Notes under the pieces: model-generated
Told to the model about the DNA's origin: nothing
What the model saw: the letters and a program-made list of their open reading frames with translations, nothing else
The model's database searches: none
From: an uncultured Halobacteriales archaeon
GTDB lineage: Archaea; Thermoplasmatota; E2; JACPAO01; JAHFTW01
Length of the DNA: 64,000 bases
Direction of reading: 5' to 3'
NCBI GenBank assembly: GCA_964643795.1
Contig: CAZXUC010000003.1
Span: 13,549 to 77,548 of the forward strand
Translations under genes and position numbers: made by a program
Shown: piece by piece, positions 2,981-58,369 of the stretch
Layout: each line of letters starts with the position of its first letter
How positions within the stretch are numbered: position 1 is the first letter of the stretch

Positions 2981-3050
2981 CCGACCGGGGATTACGGAGA
3001 TTTCGGGGACACTCGGTCACATCCCGTTCCGCGAAATCCGCTGCCCGGGG
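2981..3050. repeat. W-type short repeat (CCGACCGGGGATTACGGAGATTTCGGGGACACTCGGTCACA...)
   Basis: Second copy at 7191-7275 (CCGACCGGGGGTTACGGAGATTTCGGGGAGACTGGGTCACA...). Confidence 0.65.
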
Positions 3051-6686: not shown

Positions 6687-7309
6687 CCTTTTCCGCAGAT
6701 TGCGCAGATTACGCAGAACGTTGCAGTCGCCTCGTGCCGGTGCAATCTGCGACCGGTCCCGACCATGCCAGCAATGCGGCGAGCCAATGGCGCGCCACGT
6801 TCGAATCAGTCTTCGACGGGCCCCGACTTCCGCCGGCGACGTGGGCGAGGCGATGAACCAGAAACGTCAAGTCAATGCTCGCGGCGATGCGCGCCGCCCA
6901 CACGCGTAGGCCGCGGAACCACGCGGAACGCCGTGGGCCTCGGCGTTTTCCGCGCGCTCCGCGTGAAGAAAGGGAGGCAGGGGAGTCCACACAAACCAGG
7001 GATAAGAAATGGTCCTCGTGGCAGGGCCGAGGTCGAGATTCTGTGAAAATCCGTGCAATCCCAAGCCTCCCACACTACGGCCGCGGCGTCAACCGGGAAC
7101 CCGTGAACGACGCCCCTGCCGTCGGCGGACTGCGGTAAGTCATGTGACAGCGGTTCTGAACACGAGCGACCTCGCCAGTCTAGCGACCATCCGACCGGGG
7201 GTTACGGAGATTTCGGGGAGACTGGGTCACAGTCAGTTCCCCGTAATTCTCGGAATCCTCGGTAGGGCGTGGGGGTCGTTCTGCGTAATCGTCGAAATCT
7301 GCGGAAAGG
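6687..7309. repeat. Composite non-coding element, copy A (modules Q-mid-S-P(98 bp)-T-W-Q'), bounded by 31-32 bp terminal inverted repeats
   Basis: Left end CCTTTTCCGCAGATTGCGCAGATTACGCAGAA (6687-6718). Reverse complement of the right end (7279-7309) is CCTTTCCGCAGATTTCGACGATTACGCAGAA. The interior is homologous to 37383-37793 and, inverted, to 31759-32130. Confidence 0.8.
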
Positions 7310-8862: not shown

Positions 8863-10257
8863 CTAGCCGAGGTTTACGTTGACGTTCTTGACGCGGGTGT
8901 AGAAGCCCATTGCGTCTTTCCCTTGCTCGGCGCCGATGCCGGATTTCTTCCAGCCAGTGAAGGGCGTCTGCGGGAACGTGACGGGGAACTCGTTGATGGA
9001 GACCATGCCGCACTCCAGGTCGCGAGCAATGCGGTGGGCCGCGCCGAGGTTCTGCGTCCAAACGCCGTTTAGCAGGCCATAGTCGCAGTCGTTGGCGAGT
9101 TTCACCGCGTCGTCCGGCGTCGCAAAGGGCATGACGCTCAAGACTGGGCCAAAAATTTCCTCCCGCCACACGACGTGGCTGGACTCGACGCCGGTCAGGA
9201 TGGTGGGTTCCACGAAAGCGCCAGCTGCGAGGGCTGGGTCGGCGGGGGCCTTCCCACCGAGAGCGACCTTGGCTCCCTGTTCGACGCCCTTCTCGACGTA
9301 ACCGAGCACCGTCTTTCGTTGTCCTTGGCTCACCATACTTCCGACGCGAACACCTTCTTGGGTTCCGGGTCCGACTTTCCACCCCTTCGCCTCCGCGGCG
9401 ACGGCTTCGACGAGTTTGTCGTGGATGGATTCGTGCACGATGAGGCGGGAACCGGCCCAACACATCTGGCCGGCGTTCATGAAAATCCCGAAGCAGATGC
9501 CCTTCGCCGCTTTCTTGAGGTCGGCGTCGGGGAGGACGACGTGGGCGCCCTTGCCTCCGAGCTCCAACGTGACGGGCGTGATGTTCTCCGCAGCCGCCTT
9601 CATGACCTGGACGCCGGTTGCAACCGAACCCGTGAGGCTGATTCCATCGATGCCCGGGTGTGAAGCGAGGCGGCCGCCGACCTCGCCACCTGGGCCGGTG
9701 AGGACTTGCAGGACGCCCTTGGGGAGTCCGGCTTCTTCGGCCAGTTTCGCCCACTGCAGGAGACTGAGCGGCGTTAGGCTTGCAGGTTTCGCGATGACCG
9801 TGCAGCCCGCGGCCAGCGCTGGCGCGATCGAACGCACGGCAAGTTGCAGGGGGAAGTTCCACGGCACAATGTGCCCCGTGACGCCAAGGGGTTGGCGCAG
9901 CGTGTAGCCGAGGCGGTCACCGGGAACGGGAATCGTAGAGCCCTCGAACTTGTCGCTCCAACCCGCGAAGTACTCTAGCGTCCACGCGGCGAAGCGGACG
10001 TCCCCTGTGGCCTCTTTGATGGTCTTGCCGTTGTTGCGTGACTCCGTGAGGGCTAGGTCCTGCGCGTGTTGATACGTGAGCGCCGCCATTTTTTGCAGGA
10101 TTCGGCCGCGCTGTGCTGGATCCATCATGCGCCATTCCTTCGATTCGAACGCCGCGCGCGAGGCCTCGACGGCTTTGTCGACGTCGTCGCGAGTGCCGCG
10201 CGGCACTTGCGCCAACACTTGGCCGGTCGCGGGGTCGTGGACGGATTCAGACTGCAT
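8863..10257 (-). CDS. NAD(P)+-dependent aldehyde dehydrogenase
   Basis: 464 aa. LELGGKG, FMNAGQMCWAGSR (catalytic Cys region), EEIFGPV. Confidence 0.9.
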   Translation of the reverse strand: MQSESVHDPATGQVLAQVPRGTRDDVDKAVEASRAAFESKEWRMMDPAQRGRILQKMAALTYQHAQDLALTESRNNGKTIKEATGDVRFAAWTLEYFAGWSDKFEGSTIPVPGDRLGYTLRQPLGVTGHIVPWNFPLQLAVRSIAPALAAGCTVIAKPASLTPLSLLQWAKLAEEAGLPKGVLQVLTGPGGEVGGRLASHPGIDGISLTGSVATGVQVMKAAAENITPVTLELGGKGAHVVLPDADLKKAAKGICFGIFMNAGQMCWAGSRLIVHESIHDKLVEAVAAEAKGWKVGPGTQEGVRVGSMVSQGQRKTVLGYVEKGVEQGAKVALGGKAPADPALAAGAFVEPTILTGVESSHVVWREEIFGPVLSVMPFATPDDAVKLANDCDYGLLNGVWTQNLGAAHRIARDLECGMVSINEFPVTFPQTPFTGWKKSGIGAEQGKDAMGFYTRVKNVNVNLG

Positions 10258-10330
10258 GCCCGCGGCTACATGGCGCTTGATGAAAAGCGTGCGGGGTCGC
10301 CACCGTGCCGGTCGAGGCTGCGCGACCCGC

Positions 10331-10340
10331 CTTTTTATCG
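10331..10340 (+). promoter_or_regulatory. TATA-like box (CTTTTTATCG) for proS
   Basis: Only AT-rich patch in the intergenic region. Centre is about 29 nt upstream of ATG 10365. Confidence 0.45.
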
Positions 10341-10364
10341 GGGTTGGCCCTCGGCGCGCCTGCC

Positions 10365-11819
10365 ATGCCCGCCACAGCCGTTGCCAAGTCCAAGGACTTC
10401 ATGGAGTGGTACAATGAAATCGTCGAGGTCGCCGAACTGACGGACAAGCGGTACCCCATCAAGGGCATGAACATTTGGCGCCCGTACGGCCAGAAGATCA
10501 TGTCGCGCATCGACCAGTTCACGCGCGACGAGATGGAGCGGACGCACCATGACGAAGTCTCCTTTCCGCTCATGATTCCGGAGAAGTTGTTCATGAAGGA
10601 GTCGGACCAGATCAAAGGTTTCGGTGCCGAGGTGTTCTGGGTCACGCACGCCGGCGATAATAAGTTGCCCGACAACGAGCGCTGGGTCGTCCGCCCCACG
10701 TCGGAGTGCGCGATGTACGAGATCTTCCCGTTGTGGATTCGGTCGCACAGTGACCTCCCGCTCATGACGTACCAGATCTGCAACGTATTCCGTTACGAGA
10801 CGAAGCAGACGCGCGCCTTCATGCGAGTGCGGGAGATTCATTTCTTCGAGGACCACTCCGTCTTCGCCGACGAGAAGTCCGCCCGCGAACACGTCGCCCT
10901 CGACCTCGACATCGTGCGCAATGTGTACGCCAAGATCGCCCTGCCGGCACTCTACTCGAAGCGGCCAGATTGGGACAAGTTCCCCGGCGCCGTCGACTCC
11001 ACGGGGGCCGACGTCATTATGCCTAGCGGACGCACGCTGCAATGCGCGACTGTGCACTACTACGGCACGAACTTCGCGCAGGCGTACGACATGAAGTTTG
11101 AATCGGAGACGGAAGGCCACAAGCTCTGCCACCAGACGACGTATGGAATGTCCGAACGCCTCGTCGGAGCCGTCGTCGGTTGCCACGGCGATGACAACGG
11201 ACTCATCATGCCGCCCCAGATTGCTCCCATCCAAGTCGTCATCGTGCCCGTGCTCTTCAAGGACGGAAGCGAGCCGGTCCTCGCGCAGTGCAAGGAGGTC
11301 GCTGAGCGGCTGAAGAAGGCGGGCTTCCGCGTCGAATTCGATACGCGCGCCAAGACGTCAGGCGAGAAGTACTACCACTGGGAAGTCCGAGGCGTCCCGC
11401 TTCGCCTAGAGATTGGACCGAAGGATGTCGAGAAGAAGTCCGTCTTCGCTGCCCGGCGCGACATGGGCAAGGAAGGCAAGAAGCCCATCGCCCTAGTGGA
11501 CTTGGAGCAGGGCGTCACGGACACTTTGGCGTCAATCCACACGGCTCTGCTGGAGCGACAACTCGCCTTCGTCAAGACCCGCATCAAGCACCCGAAGACC
11601 CTGGACGAGGCAAAGACCTTGGACCAGGAAGGCCAGAAGTCGGGCACGGGATTCATCCTCGCCATGGCCATCTGCTCCGACACGTGCGCCGCGCAGGTGG
11701 AGAAGGGCCTCGATATCAAGACGCTTGGAGTCCCCGTCGATGAACAGTTCCCGGCGGCACCATGCGGCGTCTGCGGCAAGCAGGCAAAGGACACGCTGCG
11801 GTTCGCGCGCACGTACTAA
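10365..11819 (+). CDS. proS: Prolyl-tRNA synthetase, archaeal/eukaryal type
   Basis: SKDFMEWYNEIVEVAELTDKRYPIKGM..., class II motifs (FRYE, VREIHF), C-terminal zinc-binding-like ...APCGVCGK...Y. Confidence 0.92.
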   Translation: MPATAVAKSKDFMEWYNEIVEVAELTDKRYPIKGMNIWRPYGQKIMSRIDQFTRDEMERTHHDEVSFPLMIPEKLFMKESDQIKGFGAEVFWVTHAGDNKLPDNERWVVRPTSECAMYEIFPLWIRSHSDLPLMTYQICNVFRYETKQTRAFMRVREIHFFEDHSVFADEKSAREHVALDLDIVRNVYAKIALPALYSKRPDWDKFPGAVDSTGADVIMPSGRTLQCATVHYYGTNFAQAYDMKFESETEGHKLCHQTTYGMSERLVGAVVGCHGDDNGLIMPPQIAPIQVVIVPVLFKDGSEPVLAQCKEVAERLKKAGFRVEFDTRAKTSGEKYYHWEVRGVPLRLEIGPKDVEKKSVFAARRDMGKEGKKPIALVDLEQGVTDTLASIHTALLERQLAFVKTRIKHPKTLDEAKTLDQEGQKSGTGFILAMAICSDTCAAQVEKGLDIKTLGVPVDEQFPAAPCGVCGKQAKDTLRFARTY

Positions 11820-11826
11820 CCATACT

Positions 11827-11891
11827 AACCACGAATTTCACGAAGGCCCACGAAACGGACCGTTTCGTGCCAATTCGTGAAATTCGTGGTT
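11827..11891. repeat. R-type hairpin (AACCACGAATTTCACGAA ... TTCGTGAAATTCGTGGTT) just after the proS stop; possible terminator or stabiliser
   Basis: Arms of about 32 nt, near-perfect complementarity. The same AACCACGAATT word is arrayed at 57177-57300. Confidence 0.8.
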
Positions 11892-14446: not shown

Positions 14447-14737
14447 GGAGGCCTGGGATTGCACAGATATCCACAGAACGTGACCTCGCGCCGTGCCGCG
14501 TAGCCCGGTCCGCCGATTTCGCCGCTGACGCCGAACACGGTCGTCCCGCCATCGGCGAAATAGGCGTCATCGGCGGATTGGAGGTCGTTTTCGGCTGGAG
14601 AGGCCGAACGAGGCAGCGAATCTGTGAGGCTCTGTGAAATCCCAGGCCGCCCACACTACGGCCGACGATCTCGTAAAGCCGCCGCAACCTGCTTCAACCG
14701 CAAACCGTAGACGACGCCGCCGGCGGACTGCGGTAAG
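14447..14737. repeat. P/T-type element with a different internal core (CCGCCGATTTCGCCG ... CGGCGAAAT... hairpin)
   Basis: GGAGGCCTGGGATTGCACAGA ... TCTGTGAAATCCCAGGCCGCC, then T tail CACACTACGGCC...GGCGGACTGCGGTAAG. Confidence 0.75.
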
Positions 14738-19012: not shown

Positions 19013-21012
19013 CCTGGATTTTCGCGTCTCGGGGGCCGTTACGGTTTCTCCCTGCTCAGATGGGCGACTTCTCCTGAGCTGGTAGGCCAGCCACCCGGGT
19101 TTCCGTAACGGATGGTAGTGAAAACGCCGTCCGGCACGTAGCGCCAACCGAGCCCCATTCACGGGCGCGGCCGCGCCTCTCTCGGAGGGCCAAAGCTTGG
19201 CGTGGACCCTCCGCCACGATCAAACCGCAAGCCATTACTACCATCATTCCATTACGGCCCTACGTGAAGGGAACGCGAGCCTACTTCGAGCACCCGACTC
19301 ACCTCTTGCAGCGGCGCTACGAAGCGTTGCGTGCCCTGGTCGTCGACAACGAGGAACTCGAAACCGCCGCGAAACGCTTCGGCTACAAGCCCGAGAGCCT
19401 GCGTGTCCTGCACTCCCGCTTCCGAAACGGCGACCTGGACCCCTTCATGGCCACCGGCATCCCAGGCTCCCCCCCACGAAGCCGCCCCGAAGCCACCCGC
19501 GAAGCCGTTCTCGAAGCACGCCGGCAAGGCTTGAGCATGGAAGAGATCCCCGCCTACGTCGCCGACAATGGCATCAGCATCTCACCCATGACCGCCTGGC
19601 GCATTCTGCGCGACGCCGGCATCCAGCGCCTCCCGAAACGCAGCGCCAAGGACCGCGCCCCCACCCTTGCGTCAACCATGGCCGACGCCGACCAAGTCGA
19701 CTTGACAAACCGCGTCATCGATTGCCGCGCGCCCCTCGTCTTTCTCTTTGCGCCCCTTCTGCACGAGATGCGGCTCGATGATGCAATCGCAGCTGCCAAC
19801 TTCCCCGGAACCAACCAGATTACCGCCACCGCCAGCATGCGCAGTCTACTGGCCCTCAAACTCCTCAACCGCCCACGCAAGAACCACGTTGCAGCCATCA
19901 GCGACGACGAAGGATTTGGGTTGCTGGCCGGCCTCCACGTCTTGCCGAAAACTACCGCGCTGAGCACCTACTCCCACCGCGTCCCCGACCAATCCATCCG
20001 CACCTTACAGGAAACCTGGGCCCAACGATTCGCGCAAACCCAACACTTCCCCTCCGCCAGCTTCAACTTCGATTTCCACGCCATCCGGCACTACGGCGAA
20101 TCCTCCGCCCATCTGGAAACCAACTACGTGCCGCGGCGCAGCCAAAGCGTCCCGAGCATCCTCGTTGCCTTCGCCCAAGAAGCCACCACGCGCACCCTCG
20201 TCTACGCCAACGCCAACCTCCTCAAACGCGAAAAGAACGCCGAGATCCTGGCGTTCGTCGAGTACTGGTACAAAGTCACCGGCACCTACCCGAAGGAGGT
20301 CGTCTTCGACACGCAGGGCACCACCCACGAAAGCCTCGCCAAACTCGACCAACTCGGCATCACCTTCATCACACTCCGCGAACGAAGACCCAAGGAAGTC
20401 AAACGCCTCAACTCCCTGCCCGACGATGCGTGGACACGCATCGAGCTCGACGCACCACAACGCAAGTGGCGCACACCCCGCATCGTCGACGAAAAAGTCA
20501 CCGTCCAGGACTACCCGATCCCCATCCGCCAGATTGCCCTGCATGACCTCGGTCACGACGAACCCACCCTGCTCTTGACCAACGACACCCGGCGTGGACC
20601 CGCCAAACTCTTCGAGCGCTACACCCAACGCACCCCCATCGAGAACTCCATCGGCGAACAAGTCGGCTTCTTCCACGTCGACGCCCTCACCAGCGACGTC
20701 CGACTCAAAGTCGACCTCGACGTGACGCTCCGCGTGATTGCCAGCAACGCCTACCACTGGCTTGCGGGCCACCTCAAAGGCTTCGAGGCCGCCACGGCCG
20801 CCACCATCTGGCGCACCTTCCTCGACCGCCCGGGCAAGGTCATCCTCACAGACGACACCATCACCCTCCAGGTGCGCCGCTTCGCCCAAGCCCCCACCCT
20901 CCTGTCCTCCCCCCTTCTCAAAGCGACCCCTCCCATCCCCGGGCTAGGCAACCGGCGACTCGCCCTTCGCCTCCTGTAGGCCGTAACGGGGGGTGTCACG
21001 CGAAAATCCAGG
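19013..21012 (+). mobile_element. Intact IS element (about 2.0 kb) with 32-bp imperfect TIRs and 4-bp TTAG target duplication
   Basis: The left end CCTGGATTTTCGCGT (19013-19027) is the reverse complement of 20998-21012. A second matching block CCGTTACGG sits 23 nt in from both ends. TTAG lies at 19009-19012 and 21013-21016. Confidence 0.85.
19264..20979 (+). CDS. DDE-type transposase (IS4-superfamily-like; family not assignable here)
   Basis: 571 aa. N-terminal HTH (LSMEEIPAYVADNGISISPMTAWRILRDAG). Candidate acidic residues in FDFHAI, VVFDTQG and YTQRTPIENSIGEQ (Y-x2-R-x3-E signature). Confidence 0.8.
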   Translation: MKGTRAYFEHPTHLLQRRYEALRALVVDNEELETAAKRFGYKPESLRVLHSRFRNGDLDPFMATGIPGSPPRSRPEATREAVLEARRQGLSMEEIPAYVADNGISISPMTAWRILRDAGIQRLPKRSAKDRAPTLASTMADADQVDLTNRVIDCRAPLVFLFAPLLHEMRLDDAIAAANFPGTNQITATASMRSLLALKLLNRPRKNHVAAISDDEGFGLLAGLHVLPKTTALSTYSHRVPDQSIRTLQETWAQRFAQTQHFPSASFNFDFHAIRHYGESSAHLETNYVPRRSQSVPSILVAFAQEATTRTLVYANANLLKREKNAEILAFVEYWYKVTGTYPKEVVFDTQGTTHESLAKLDQLGITFITLRERRPKEVKRLNSLPDDAWTRIELDAPQRKWRTPRIVDEKVTVQDYPIPIRQIALHDLGHDEPTLLLTNDTRRGPAKLFERYTQRTPIENSIGEQVGFFHVDALTSDVRLKVDLDVTLRVIASNAYHWLAGHLKGFEAATAATIWRTFLDRPGKVILTDDTITLQVRRFAQAPTLLSSPLLKATPPIPGLGNRRLALRLL

Positions 21013-37382: not shown

Positions 37383-37793
37383 CGCAGATTTCGTGCACCA
37401 CCTTTTCCGCAGATTACGCAGATTTCGCAGAGCGCTGCGGTCACCGCGTGCCTGTGCAATCTGCGACCGGTCCCGATGCTTCGAGCAATGCGGTAATCCA
37501 AGGGCGCGCCGCGGCCGTAGCCATCTGCGAGTGGACCCGCCAAACTCCGACGACGTCGGCGGGCACGTGAGGAACCAACCTTGACTCGATGATGGCGGCG
37601 CCGCGCGCCGCAGTCACACCCATCGAAGAAAGGGAGGCCTGGGATTTCACAGAAACCAGGGATGCAAAATGGTCCTCGTGGCAGGGTCGAGGTCAAGATT
37701 CTGTGGAAATCTGTGCAATCCCAGGCCTCCCACACCACGGCCGCGGTGTCAACGTGGAACCCGTGGACGACGCCGTCGGCCGACTGCGGTAAG
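37383..37793. repeat. Composite non-coding element, copy C (Q-Q-mid-P(98 bp)-T)
   Basis: CACCTTTTCCGCAGATTTCG...CACCTTTTCCGCAGATTACGCAGATTTCGCAGA; GGAGGCCTGGGATTTCACAGA...TGTGCAATCCCAGGCCTCC (37633-37730); tail ...GGCCGACTGCGGTAAG. Confidence 0.8.
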
Positions 37794-41899: not shown

Positions 41900-42162
41900 G
41901 GAGGCCTGGGATTGCACAGATTCCTACAGATTCTGGTCCTCAATGGGTTCGCCCCTTCACGCGGAGGTCGCGGAACCCCGCGGAATCGCTTCCGCGACTT
42001 CCCGGTTCTCCGCGTGAAGTGTAGTGCGTTGCGTGCAAGAACACAATCTGTGAATTTCCGTGAAATCCCAAGCCTCCCACACTCCGGCCGACAGTCTCGC
42101 GATTCAAATCGTGCATCAACCGCAAACCGTGCACCACGCCCCCGTCGGCGGACTGCGGTAAG
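41900..42162. repeat. P-type long-hairpin element (41900-42077) plus long-form T tail (to 42162)
   Basis: Roughly 85-90% identical by eye to 1866-2043. The tail ends ...CCCGTCGGCGGACTGCGGTAAG. Confidence 0.8.
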
Positions 42163-43029: not shown

Positions 43030-43108
43030 CATCGGTGGTCATCGGTGACATCGGTGGATGGGTGGCGCGCAACGCACCGATCCACCGATGCCACTGATTT
43101 CACCGATG
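43030..43108. repeat. U-type word hairpin (CATCGGTG x3 ... CACCGAT x3) in a convergent intergenic region
   Basis: ACATCGGTGGTCATCGGTGACATCGGTGG...CACCGATCCACCGATGCCACTGATTTCACCGATG, read directly. Confidence 0.75.
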
Positions 43109-44520: not shown

Positions 44521-44590
44521 ACGCGGAACGCACGGAACCGCGCGGAAAACGGCAGGACGGTTCGTTCCGCGGGTTCCGCGGGTTCCGCGT
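44521..44590. repeat. S-type word hairpin (CGCGGAAC words / GTTCCGCG words)
   Basis: ACGCGGAACGCACGGAACCGCGCGGAA ... TTCCGCGGGTTCCGCGGGTTCCGCGT. Confidence 0.75.
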
Positions 44591-54207: not shown

Positions 54208-54245
54208 GGTACGCGGGGCGGCGCGCCCAGCCCCTGCCGCGGCCC

Positions 54246-54493
54246 AGTCGCAGAACTCACAGAACCCGCAGAAGCGGTGCTGTGCTTTCTGCGACCGGTC
54301 GTTCCGCGGGATTCCGCGGCCTCCGCGTGACGAGGGCAGGCTCGCCGACAAACGTCGGGCCGGCCAAGCCGGACATTGCTGGTGCGCTTCGAAGGGAACG
54401 GCGCGGTTTCCGCAGATTTCGCAGATACCACAGATGACGAGTGGCAGCCACGCGGCTGTCCAGTTCTGCGAAATCTGCGGCATCTGCGGAAAA
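54246..54493. repeat. Composite of shared modules, ending in an 87-bp Q-type hairpin (54407-54493)
   Basis: TTTCCGCAGATTTCGCAGATACCACAGATG ... TTCTGCGAAATCTGCGGCATCTGCGGAAAAG. The upstream part shares ...TCTGCGACCGGTC... and, inverted, TCACGCGGAGGCCGCGGAATCCCGCGGAAC with other copies. Confidence 0.75.
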
Positions 54494-56432: not shown

Positions 56433-56473
56433 CACCGTAGATTCCGCACCGTAGATTCCACGCGGTATATTCC
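56433..56473 (+). repeat. V-type tandem 14-bp repeat (CACCGTAGATTCCG x2 plus a degenerate third copy containing TATATT)
   Basis: Read directly, upstream of the 56524 gene. Confidence 0.6.
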
Positions 56474-56523: not shown

Positions 56524-57156
56524 ATGGTCGCCACTGACACCTTGGTCGGCATCGTCGGCGCCGCCGTCCTCTTCGCGGTGATGGCGGGCGTCTTCGTGTA
56601 CGAATACAACAACACGCCCGAAGTCAACGGCGGAGGCAACGGCAACAACGGCGGCAACCTTAGCTTCGCCGAGCAGTACCCCTTCCTGGATCCCGTTCAG
56701 GACATCGACGGCGACGGCACTCCTAACGGCGTGGATGATGACGTCGACGGTGACGGGGTGTCGAACGCCAGCGACAACGAGACCGTGGTTGGTCCGAAAT
56801 CGATTGGGAGCGGCTCGCTTGGCCCCCAAGTCGGCGACGTCGTCGCGCCGTCGGTCAGCCTTCAATTCATGGTCGGCAACGGGTCCAGCCATGTGACGGC
56901 GACCATTACGGTTAGCTCCGCCGCCAGCCAAGGGCCGGTCACCGGAAACTTCCAAGTCATGCTCGTGGACCCGAGCGGGGCGACCGTGGCCACGGCCAAC
57001 TCCGCGGCGCCGTTCACGCAGACTTCCTTCACCTTGGAATCTAAGATGGACTCCGACCCGGAGCCGGGCACGTGGACCGTGCGCATCTCGCAAAATTCCG
57101 CGGGCTCCGGCGGAAACGTCGCGGGCACGGCGACGATCCACTACGGCGACCACTGA
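56524..57156 (+). CDS. N-terminally anchored surface protein with Asp-rich Ca-binding-like repeats
   Basis: TM LVGIVGAAVLFAVMAGVFV; DIDGDGTPNGVDDDVDGDGVSNASDNE (thrombospondin-type-3-like); C-terminal ...VMLVDPSGA...GTWTVRIS. Confidence 0.6.
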   Translation: MVATDTLVGIVGAAVLFAVMAGVFVYEYNNTPEVNGGGNGNNGGNLSFAEQYPFLDPVQDIDGDGTPNGVDDDVDGDGVSNASDNETVVGPKSIGSGSLGPQVGDVVAPSVSLQFMVGNGSSHVTATITVSSAASQGPVTGNFQVMLVDPSGATVATANSAAPFTQTSFTLESKMDSDPEPGTWTVRISQNSAGSGGNVAGTATIHYGDH

Positions 57157-57176: not shown

Positions 57177-57300
57177 AACCACGAATTGCAGCGTCTCCGG
57201 AACCACGAATTGCACCGGAACCACGAATTTCACGAAACCGCGTTTCGTGCGGTTCGTGCAATTCGTGGTTAGGCCCGTGCGCGTGAGGGAATTCGTGGTT
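57177..57300. repeat. R-type array: AACCACGAATT x3 (direct) then AATTCGTGGTT x2 (inverted), with a central hairpin
   Basis: Word copies start at 57177, 57201 and 57219; inverted copies at 57260 and 57290. Fills the convergent gap before the pelota stop. Confidence 0.8.
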
Positions 57301-57316: not shown

Positions 57317-58369
57317 CTACAGTTTGAACCGCAGCAACGCCGCCAGTCCACCCATCCTCTCGAGCCGCATCCCAGCTTCGTGGCTTGATGCGACAATCGT
57401 AATCGGCACCCGCAGGCTTTCTGCGTTGCGCAGCATGGTATCATGTTTGCCGGAGCGCACGATGGTGTCGCTCACGATCAGTTGATCGACGGCGCCCGCA
57501 TCGAGCGCCGCTGCGACGGCTGCGGGTCCATAGGTCGCCAGCCCATCGCCCTTTGCAACGCGGGTGAGGAATGCTTCGACGAGACGCGTCTCGACTTCCA
57601 CACGGTGGTCCCGGCTGACGCGCTGCACGAGGCCGTTGCGGACCGCTTCATGCAGCCCGGCCCTTCCGCCATGCGCAGTCCCGTCGCTTGCGAGTCCTGC
57701 GGCGGCATGCGGCGCCTTCCGCTTCGCGTACTCCACGAACTCCTCCCGCCACCAACCGGGTCCGACGATGAGGCAAGGCGTAGTCGGGTCGGGTCGGAAA
57801 ATTTGCAGCGACTTGAGGGTCTCCGCGTAGAAGTCCTGCTTCGCCTGCTCGGCGCCCGCAAAACGCTTGCCCTGGCCGCCCGACGGAAGCGAACCAAGCA
57901 TCTGTAGGCCATACGACTTGAGCAAGGCGAACTGGGCTTCGGAGTCATCGATGGCGAGGAGGACGACCTTCGGCGTCTGCGTCGCCTGCACGGCGTCCTC
58001 GATGAGTTTGAGGTGCCAGGTCGCGATGCCGTGGCGCTTCTCGATGACGACGTCGGAGCCATCGCCACGCAGGATGAGCGTGTGGTGGCGCCCGTGGTCT
58101 TGGGGTCCGGTCTCAATCGGTCCGAGGACGCGTAAGTGATCGTCGAAGTCATGCCACTCGACGGATTCGGCGCGCACGCCGAGGCGCATGCCGCGCTTCT
58201 CCATCTTCGTGTCGCGAATCTTGTCGCCCGTCGATTCCGCGGTGCGCTGCGTGTCGGCGGTGACGCGGTCTCCGCTCTGGATGAGGTTGCGCAGCGTCCA
58301 CAAGTCGTCGAGCGAGTCGAGACGGAGATGCACGACGCCTTCTCCCAACTCCTTGCGCAACAGCCTCAT
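57317..58369 (-). CDS. pelA: Pelota (Dom34 homologue), mRNA surveillance / ribosome rescue
   Basis: MRLLRKELGEGVVHLRLDSLDDLWTLRNLIQSGDRVTADT... 350 aa, with an eRF1-like domain layout. Confidence 0.9.
   Translation of the reverse strand: MRLLRKELGEGVVHLRLDSLDDLWTLRNLIQSGDRVTADTQRTAESTGDKIRDTKMEKRGMRLGVRAESVEWHDFDDHLRVLGPIETGPQDHGRHHTLILRGDGSDVVIEKRHGIATWHLKLIEDAVQATQTPKVVLLAIDDSEAQFALLKSYGLQMLGSLPSGGQGKRFAGAEQAKQDFYAETLKSLQIFRPDPTTPCLIVGPGWWREEFVEYAKRKAPHAAAGLASDGTAHGGRAGLHEAVRNGLVQRVSRDHRVEVETRLVEAFLTRVAKGDGLATYGPAAVAAALDAGAVDQLIVSDTIVRSGKHDTMLRNAESLRVPITIVASSHEAGMRLERMGGLAALLRFKL

Follow-up and report, generated by a model that had tools for sequence, protein, structure and literature searches.

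Positions 57177-57300 of the window, which is the whole 64,000-nucleotide stretch of DNA analysed here (C3:13549-77548 of the host genome), carry a short word, CACGAATTN, arrayed in tandem and then mirrored. This hairpin, locus R, is situated between two convergent genes, 56524-57156(+) and 57317-58369(-), and has a core at 57199-57273 and doubled outer termini (GGAACCACGAATTGCA / AATTCGTGGTTAGG). The question raised by this locus is what such a hairpin is and by what it is maintained. The initial annotation had seen it as one of several hairpins of different words, which could act as terminators or stabilisers, or might form a diversifying family recognised by one protein. We found that these hairpins share their arms with cassettes that encode a PF13366 nuclease, that the gene is inherited together with its arms, and that hairpins are gained at new sites.

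The host genome (G000; 2.78 Mb in 62 contigs, ~64% G+C, 88% complete) contains about 200 word hairpins, the arms of which consist of two to three tandem nonamers followed by the same words mirrored. A relaxed detector returned 196-205 hairpins, with ~380 forward and ~360 inverse arrays. Nearly all words follow one nonamer unit, C-R-C-N-G-A-W-N-N, composed of a 7-nt word and two free bases, which replaces the core GA(A/T)T(T/C)(T/C)C previously read from the window. The exceptions to C-R-C-N-G-A-W are CACGAAT, which is off at one position, and the word of family W (CGGRGATTN), which is off at another. Of 258 word pairs, 187 have their units 9 nt apart and 23 have them 10 nt apart, the remainder being mostly multiples, and the arrays are oriented inward (forward, then inverse) at 136 sites versus a single site in reverse order. 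The largest word families are CGCGGAA (S), with 54 copies, and CGCAGAA, with 44. Using a strict word-agnostic scan, in which any 7-mer must occur twice within 25 nt and its reverse complement twice no more than 200 nt further on, we detected 143 loci, compared to 0-2 in five simulated genomes generated by a 5th-order Markov model. Chance is thus excluded. A search against Rfam covered the arrays with no family.

The symmetry of these elements resides in the words. In 131 strict hairpins with three units on either side, the 7-nt words pair at 92-97%, whereas the 2-nt spacers pair at only 34%, versus 26 ± 2% in shuffled sequences; the mirrored words, but not the spacers, are complementary, so the hairpin is not one continuous stem. 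Consistently low conservation of the spacers is also seen in aligned copies of the composite modules described below, where the spacer columns are the least conserved. Outside the words, each family possesses its own terminal inverted repeat of 3-4 nt, followed by a weak C-rich outer box. The left and right termini are ATC and GAT in family CACCGATG, AAC and GTT in both CACGAATT and CGCGGATT, GGT or AGT and ACC or ACT in CGCAGAA, TTTC and GAAA in CGCAGAT, and ACA and TGT in CGCGGAA, respectively.

All of the loci that the initial annotation had listed in the window were inspected and, apart from the core, V and U, found as described; most are word hairpins of this design, namely those of R, S, Q and W, in addition to a CGCAGAA hairpin at 54244-54298 that it had missed; all are palindromic and are given without strand. 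A second R hairpin (11827-11891) has 32-nt arms that are 88% complementary, and starts 8 nt past the stop codon of gene 10305-11819(+). The S hairpin at 44521-44590, with word CGCGGAANN, comprises three plus three units, and an S-type hairpin at 6906-6968 is nested in a composite element of 623 nt. This composite (6687-7309) is framed by Q arms at 6687-6718 and 7279-7309, and contains, besides the S hairpin, a W hairpin (7191-7275) and a short element of the P type. Its modules are found again at more than 50 loci, and 24-33 copies can be aligned. Q left arms with a duplicated terminus, the head of another copy of the composite, lie at 37383-37440, and a Q hairpin with word CGCAGATNN and termini TTTC/GAAA is located at 54407-54493. 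The word CGGRGATTN forms another W hairpin at 2981-3050.

The window also holds P-type elements. One of them (14447-14651) has a terminal inverted repeat, GGAGGCCTGGGATT, together with CACAGA words and a nested CGCCGAT hairpin (14509-14577). Another (1855-2054) holds a nested ACGCGGAG/CGCGGAA hairpin at 1923-1983, and has a twin at 41900-42077.

Two listed loci depart from the common design. Locus V (56433-56473, + strand) is a direct repeat, CACCGTAGATTCC, present twice with a period of ~14 nt and without a mirrored arm, and was rejected as a member of the class on account of this different period and the direct repeat; with gene 56524-57156 beginning 50 nt downstream, it is a possible operator. 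Locus U (43030-43108; word CACCGATG) is the sole site in the host genome with the order reversed, an inverse array being followed after 15 nt by a forward array, as if the right end of one element abutted the left end of another. It could be the footprint of an excision or a circle junction, or two truncated neighbouring elements.

A long-form search of the host genome, for forward and inverse arrays of one word separated by 150-4000 nt, revealed what connects these hairpins to a protein. Arrays of CGCGGATT (C23:22908-23480), CACCGATG (C13:21098-21525, cognate to locus U) and CGCAGATG (C13:1452-1975, cognate to the Q hairpins) each enclose an open reading frame, at C23:23046-23384, C13:21133-21471 and C13:1586-1924, respectively. 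All three products belong to PF13366, PDDEXK_3 (E ~1e-36), and to TIGR04256, GxxExxY (E 1e-39), scoring 126-127 bits on the first profile (cut-off 22) and 135 bits on the second (cut-off 35). The host genome harbours five intact copies and one broken copy of this gene. The intact copy framed by the R word (C33:10123-10440) sits in an element of ~567 bp (C33:~10000-10570), the termini of which are those of the hairpin at 57177-57300 and are likewise doubled. Moreover, P-type termini frame an intact copy at C21:47431-47763, and the W word of 2981-3050 frames the broken copy at C49:~680-1230. Thus, R, Q, U-type, W and P-type each have a cognate gene-bearing element; counted by word, the six families with a long form of their own are R, Q, CACCGAT, CGCGGAT, P-type and, with its broken gene, W. 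For the binding or mobilising protein that the initial annotation had suggested looking for elsewhere in the genome, there is thus a candidate, PF13366/GxxExxY, framed by the same arrays.

A full-length element measures ~420-730 bp, and consists of a terminal repeat of 3-4 nt, three inward 9-nt units, the gene and the mirrored units. Gene-bearing and gene-less copies have only the arms in common. No cognate gene was found for CGCGGAA (S) or CGCAGAA in the 88%-complete assembly, nor any decayed gene remnant inside the composites of the window. In eight archaeal cassettes (L045, L049, L050, L057, L058, L060, L063 and L071), a small conserved stem-loop with the motif GGCCAAC / ACCAAC-N-GTTGG lies ~60-100 nt before the open reading frame, inside the left array in some families and outside it in others; a role as promoter, operator or processing site is possible.

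The encoded protein has ~125-150 residues, among which a glutamate (in GxxExxY), an aspartate (in RxDF) and an ExK motif are invariant. These residues, E26, D66, E76 and K78, occupy the E...D...ExK positions of the PD-(D/E)XK active site, and the AlphaFold2 model (pLDDT 94, pTM 0.87) predicts a PD-(D/E)XK fold. The solved folds nearest to the model are those of Cas4 SSO0001, λ exonuclease, MGME1 and RecE, each with a TM score of ~0.5, and the protein is thus a Cas4/RecB-like core of the generic kind, with no further domain attached. A sequence search of the PDB gave no match, and searches of PADLOC and PHROGs gave only weak matches to Cas4b or to entries of unknown function. As a bare nuclease domain with no obvious DNA-binding or strand-transfer module, it is not a complete transposase on its own. 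A survey of the superfamily lists the function of PF13366 as "Unknown" (PMC3424549), and we found no description of repeats flanking PF13366/GxxExxY genes in the searchable literature.

The framing of the gene by such arms extends far beyond the host genome. At about 20 of 29 archaeal PF13366 loci, the gene lies between forward and inverse arrays, which use at least eight words in at least 10 species. A scan with one genome per species yielded at least 583 confirmed PF13366 relatives, and the best 80 loci come from Planctomycetota, Verrucomicrobiota, Acidobacteriota, Lentisphaerota, Bacteroidales, Gemmatimonadota, Pseudomonadota and others. In 67 testable loci, nearly all of them bacterial, a framing inverted repeat (score ≥30) is present in 88%, compared to 0.8% of shifted control windows. 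The bacterial arms are also built of three nonamers, with the consensus (A)TC-CRCAGAT(T/G)N, and Bacteroidales use ACGAATT. Altogether, the same type of arm, three nonamers, accompanies the gene in archaea and in no fewer than 15 bacterial phyla, a physical linkage of gene and array across two domains of life. The 51 cassettes that could be delimited have a median length of 471 bp, and their inverted repeat reaches ~3 nt beyond the words; a target-site duplication was found at none of the 51.

Gene-less hairpins are few in bacteria, with 0-19 pattern matches per genome tested. The most were found in Salinisphaera sp. PC39 (L126, G048), in which 19 CRCAGAT matches (~17 loci), often paired ~180 bp apart, have no gene in the hairpin, and only two PF13366 genes are present; this organism is cultured, and the system could be studied there. 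In another bacterial chromosome (L147, G044 C1:3352731-3353958), three tandem PF13366 matches of equal score recur at 443-bp intervals and so suggest whole cassettes arrayed head to tail.

In archaea, hairpins and gene tend to occur together. Among the host genome and its relatives, the inward double-nonamer pattern is present in all 13 genomes of the genus (2-197 matches) and in G019, from another genus of the family. It is absent from the 27 other relatives, and the pattern read backward as a control has no match in the 41 genomes. The counts vary strongly between sister species, and so does the dominant word, which is CACGGATT in G008 and CGCGGATK in G010, with CGCAGATT in G019. PF13366 is found in 13 of the 13 genomes of the hairpin-rich genus, with 1-8 copies each, and in 1 of the 28 others; in G019, an assembly 83% complete in 280 contigs, the pattern matches 48 times and PF13366 was not detected. 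A 301-genome sample of the phylum contains PF13366 in 28 genomes and hairpins in eight, all eight of which possess the gene, versus 20 of the other 293, and the backward control again has no match in the 301 genomes. In G138, from another family and an independent lineage, hairpins of word CGCTGAA occur together with PF13366. Conversely, 20 Thermoplasmatota genomes carry PF13366 with few or no gene-less hairpins. As this co-occurrence amounts to only two or three independent lineages, we weighted the physical linkage of gene and arrays more heavily.

A tree of the archaeal proteins, built on the domain core after the array-encoded termini had been trimmed, groups CACGAAT-linked proteins of three species (support 98/97), two CGCAGAT-linked proteins (100/99) and two CACCGAT-linked proteins (89/87). 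Word labels require 17 changes on this tree compared to 21.1 for shuffled labels, and none of 500 shuffles required so few, whereas species labels do not cluster (22 versus 23.3). On a tree of 107 proteins, word classes likewise require 27 changes compared to 32.7 (0 of 300), and the proteins of two phyla that use the rare word CGCGAAT are sisters; with only 103 columns, the trees are weakly resolved. Protein and word thus co-cluster. Comparison of flanking genes showed that some gene-bearing elements are syntenic across species. At one orthologous locus, all units read CACCGAT in G000 and G009 and CGCCGAT in G006, which is a concerted change, and at another shared locus three word lineages occupy the site in three species, one of them inverted. 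Regarding the proposal of a diversifying family read by one protein through a common core, a candidate protein family indeed exists, but the sequences speak for a set of paralogues tied to one word apiece rather than for a single protein reading the common core.

The presence of a hairpin at a given site also varies between species. The orthologous gap of locus R contains the R hairpin in the host genome and a CACGGAA hairpin in G012, whereas in six further species of this genus it measures only 10-40 nt and holds no hairpin; since protein identity to the relatives does not exceed 71% at the locus compared, this is a comparison of gaps rather than of base-level empty-site junctions. The differences in this gap are an insertion polymorphism and not a conserved signal. 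In addition, hairpins are nested within one another and within P-type elements, and modular composites of 470-680 bp occur at more than 50 loci in the host genome, with many contigs ending inside them. Within families, the identity between nearest neighbours is ~0.85, and a few identical pairs are found at different loci.

On contig C11, word arrays 2.9 kb apart were considered as a large autonomous element and rejected, since the enclosed genes are housekeeping genes. There (C11:34186-37141), the left- and right-end modules of a Q-framed composite flank aIF2-α-like and PAC2-like genes, as if a composite had been split or its ends were able to exist alone.

We consider it rather likely that the word hairpins represent multi-copy forms, lacking the gene, within a group of small palindromic elements centred on the PF13366 nuclease, which would read the words and maintain or spread the hairpins. 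The 7-nt words would be the recognition sites of the cognate nuclease, three per arm, with the 2-nt spacers left free, and the gene-less hairpins would be maintained or spread in trans. Because a nuclease of ~130 residues is unable to perform strand transfer, spread would need host repair or replication; it might proceed by RAYT-like mobilisation, by homing-type copying or repair after cleavage, or by hairpin-primed or template-switch synthesis. Alternatively, the hairpins might not spread in this manner but serve as targets in an Ssn-like role (PMC11893778). From sequence comparison, the best reading is probably a nuclease-repeat pairing that resembles REPIN/RAYT or Ssn/SRM but employs another enzyme, the words being its likely recognition sites. 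More tentatively, PF13366 proteins in general might be the sequence-reading nucleases of a hitherto unrecognised class of hairpin-ended elements in archaea and bacteria, each paralogue reading its own 7-nt word (three times per arm, at 9-nt spacing) and excising, copying or homing the cassette and the gene-less hairpins; the co-evolution of word and protein would then have given rise to a natural panel of orthogonal nuclease-site pairs, in which a single archaeal genus is represented by at least 10 words.

This proposal resembles known systems to different degrees. In the REPIN/RAYT systems of Proteobacteria, a low-copy gene is flanked by its cognate repeats, and several such pairs coexist in a genome (PMC3116915, PMC3337134, PMC5581495). 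Similarly, short intergenic palindromes are found here in tens to hundreds, together with a low-copy gene flanked by its own repeat type and with several pairs per genome, and the gene is inherited vertically while the repeat numbers fluctuate. The enzyme differs, being PD-(D/E)XK rather than a Y1 HUH transposase, and the pairing here occurs in archaea as well as in bacteria. Compared to the REPIN, an imperfect palindrome of 20-40 nt tagged by GTAG/CGTC, the arms here consist of three tandem nonamers, and the hairpins lack the GTAG/CGTC end tetranucleotide, ending instead in ATC, AAC, GGT, TTTC or ACA followed by the C-R-C-N-G-A-W units. In the Ssn system, the gene of a GIY-YIG nuclease is flanked by its own NTS/SRM hairpin, the copies of which can number hundreds (Chenal et al. 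2025, PMC11893778); the system is defined by sequence-specific cleavage of single-stranded DNA at this repeat. In both systems, a small stand-alone nuclease gene has its own dispersed hairpin on either side, and repeat variants track nuclease variants; the systems differ in the nuclease, PD-(D/E)XK here, and in the repeat, which here is a periodic word array. As in MITEs and in foldback elements with inverted arms made of tandem sub-repeats, short copies share only terminal inverted repeats with the longer gene-bearing copy, and nesting and lineage-specific bursts are seen; unlike in MITEs, there is no target-site duplication, the partner gene encodes no DDE transposase, and the whole "autonomous" element is only ~470-570 bp long. 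Those intervening sequences of bacterial 23S rRNA that bear a small open reading frame likewise enclose it between inverted arms able to form a long stem. The elements described here differ from them in lying in ordinary intergenic DNA and in encoding another protein family.

The pairing of PF13366 with repeats would represent a third enzyme class, after RAYT and Ssn, in which a nuclease or transposase is accompanied by its own dispersed hairpins, and suggests that such arrangements have evolved repeatedly. It also accounts for the origin of the dense tandem-word palindromes in the intergenic DNA of an uncultured Thermoplasmatota lineage, the label borne by the closest public homologues of the host proteins. 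PF13366 is widespread, with its at least 583 confirmed relatives in many phyla, and a unit of gene and repeat in many bacterial phyla offers a testable function for this orphan family, directly so since the DNA motif is conserved and easily synthesised. If the words are recognition sites, the word-protein pairs would form a natural set of specificity variants. What is new here is the link of the cassettes to dispersed gene-less hairpins, the diversification of words with paralogue clades, and the concerted change at an orthologous locus.

Could the gene be incidental to the hairpins? PF13366 genes might be mere passengers in the loops of pre-existing hairpins, which would be spread by an unrecognised transposase or by protein-free template switching. 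Loops do act as landing sites, as seen for an IS110-family element in a CGCAGAA hairpin and for hairpins nested in hairpins; furthermore, gene-bearing and gene-less copies are alike in the arms only, and the two largest families, CGCGGAA and CGCAGAA, lack a cognate gene in the host genome. Nevertheless, a random passenger is not expected to keep one type of arm over the phylogenetic distance that separates at least 15 bacterial phyla and archaea, and the protein clades follow the words, which makes this explanation improbable.

We hold it equally improbable that the nuclease and hairpins constitute a host-level system of the Ssn/SRM type, in which the hairpins would be genomic targets that are not mobilised and would modulate recombination, DNA uptake or genome stability. 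The layout is like that of SsnA, whose cognate hairpin repeat flanks it and exists in hundreds of copies (PMC11893778), and the gene-bearing copies stay syntenic across species at a low copy number (1-8). By contrast, the insertion polymorphism with different families in the same gap at locus R, the nested insertions, the identical copies at different loci and the uneven counts between sister species (2-197) all look like selfish spread. Target reading of the Ssn type and selfish spread are not mutually exclusive.

The remaining alternative concerns RNA. The initial annotation had placed the hairpins mostly at the 3' ends of genes, a preference that is real but modest: they occupy 65 of 329 convergent, 100 of 1472 tandem and 6 of 330 divergent gaps, and 12 are genic, so that convergent gaps are favoured and promoter-containing divergent gaps avoided, all counts being approximate as the genes (2193, 85% coding) were called by a crude home-made caller. 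Within the 100 tandem gaps, 65 hairpins are closer to the upstream stop and 35 to the downstream start. A T5 tract within 30 nt is found at none of the 100 tandem-gap hairpins and at 1 of 130 convergent sides, and the predicted stability of the sense RNA is not favoured over that of the antisense (44 versus 56). Side by side with this, only 2.2% of the genes in the host genome have a T5 run within 60 nt past the stop codon, and 8.7% a T4 run; oligo-T, the signal commonly used for termination in archaea, thus seems to be rare in this high-GC genome.

Archaeal termination relies on oligo-T and aCPSF1 rather than on hairpins. That the hairpins are host-selected RNA-level elements, either terminators or 3'-end stabilisers, as previously suggested, is thus very unlikely: their enrichment in convergent gaps and near stops, their stable predicted stems (mean MFE ~-33 kcal/mol) and the scarcity of oligo-T after genes would fit such a role, but they lack T-tracts and sense-strand bias, the spacers of their mirrored units are unpaired, the gap of locus R has no hairpin in six relatives, and only ~200 hairpins face ~2200 genes.

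Other mobile elements were examined as partners of the hairpins and rejected. Y1/RAYT (PF01797) is absent from all 14 hairpin genomes, and was found only in three distant hairpin-free genomes; TnpB (PF07282) is absent from the 14 as well, apart from one sub-threshold match in G012, so that both marker genes of IS200/IS605 and PATE-type elements are lacking. None of the multi-copy protein families in the host genome is relevant as an IS candidate. The IS1380-like IS, which is the one DDE IS of the window and the terminal inverted repeat of which is vaguely word-like, is unique to the host genome among the 41 genomes. It is an intact element (19013-21012) with 32-bp terminal inverted repeats (CCTGGATTTTCGCGT...CCGTTACGG), TTAG on both sides and a distantly IS1380-like transposase of 571 residues. 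IS110 was discarded as a mobiliser because its only copy, in the host genome, targets a hairpin rather than mobilising hairpins. This copy (L019, C2:144991-146249), the sole one across the 13 genomes of the genus, lies near the centre of a CGCAGAA hairpin, encodes a DEDD transposase of 337 residues (C2:145068-146078) and is flanked by GACCGGTCGCAGAACGCGCAGAAGC... and ...TTTCTGTGACTTCTGCGACTGG; we take it to resemble REP-targeting IS110 members such as IS621.
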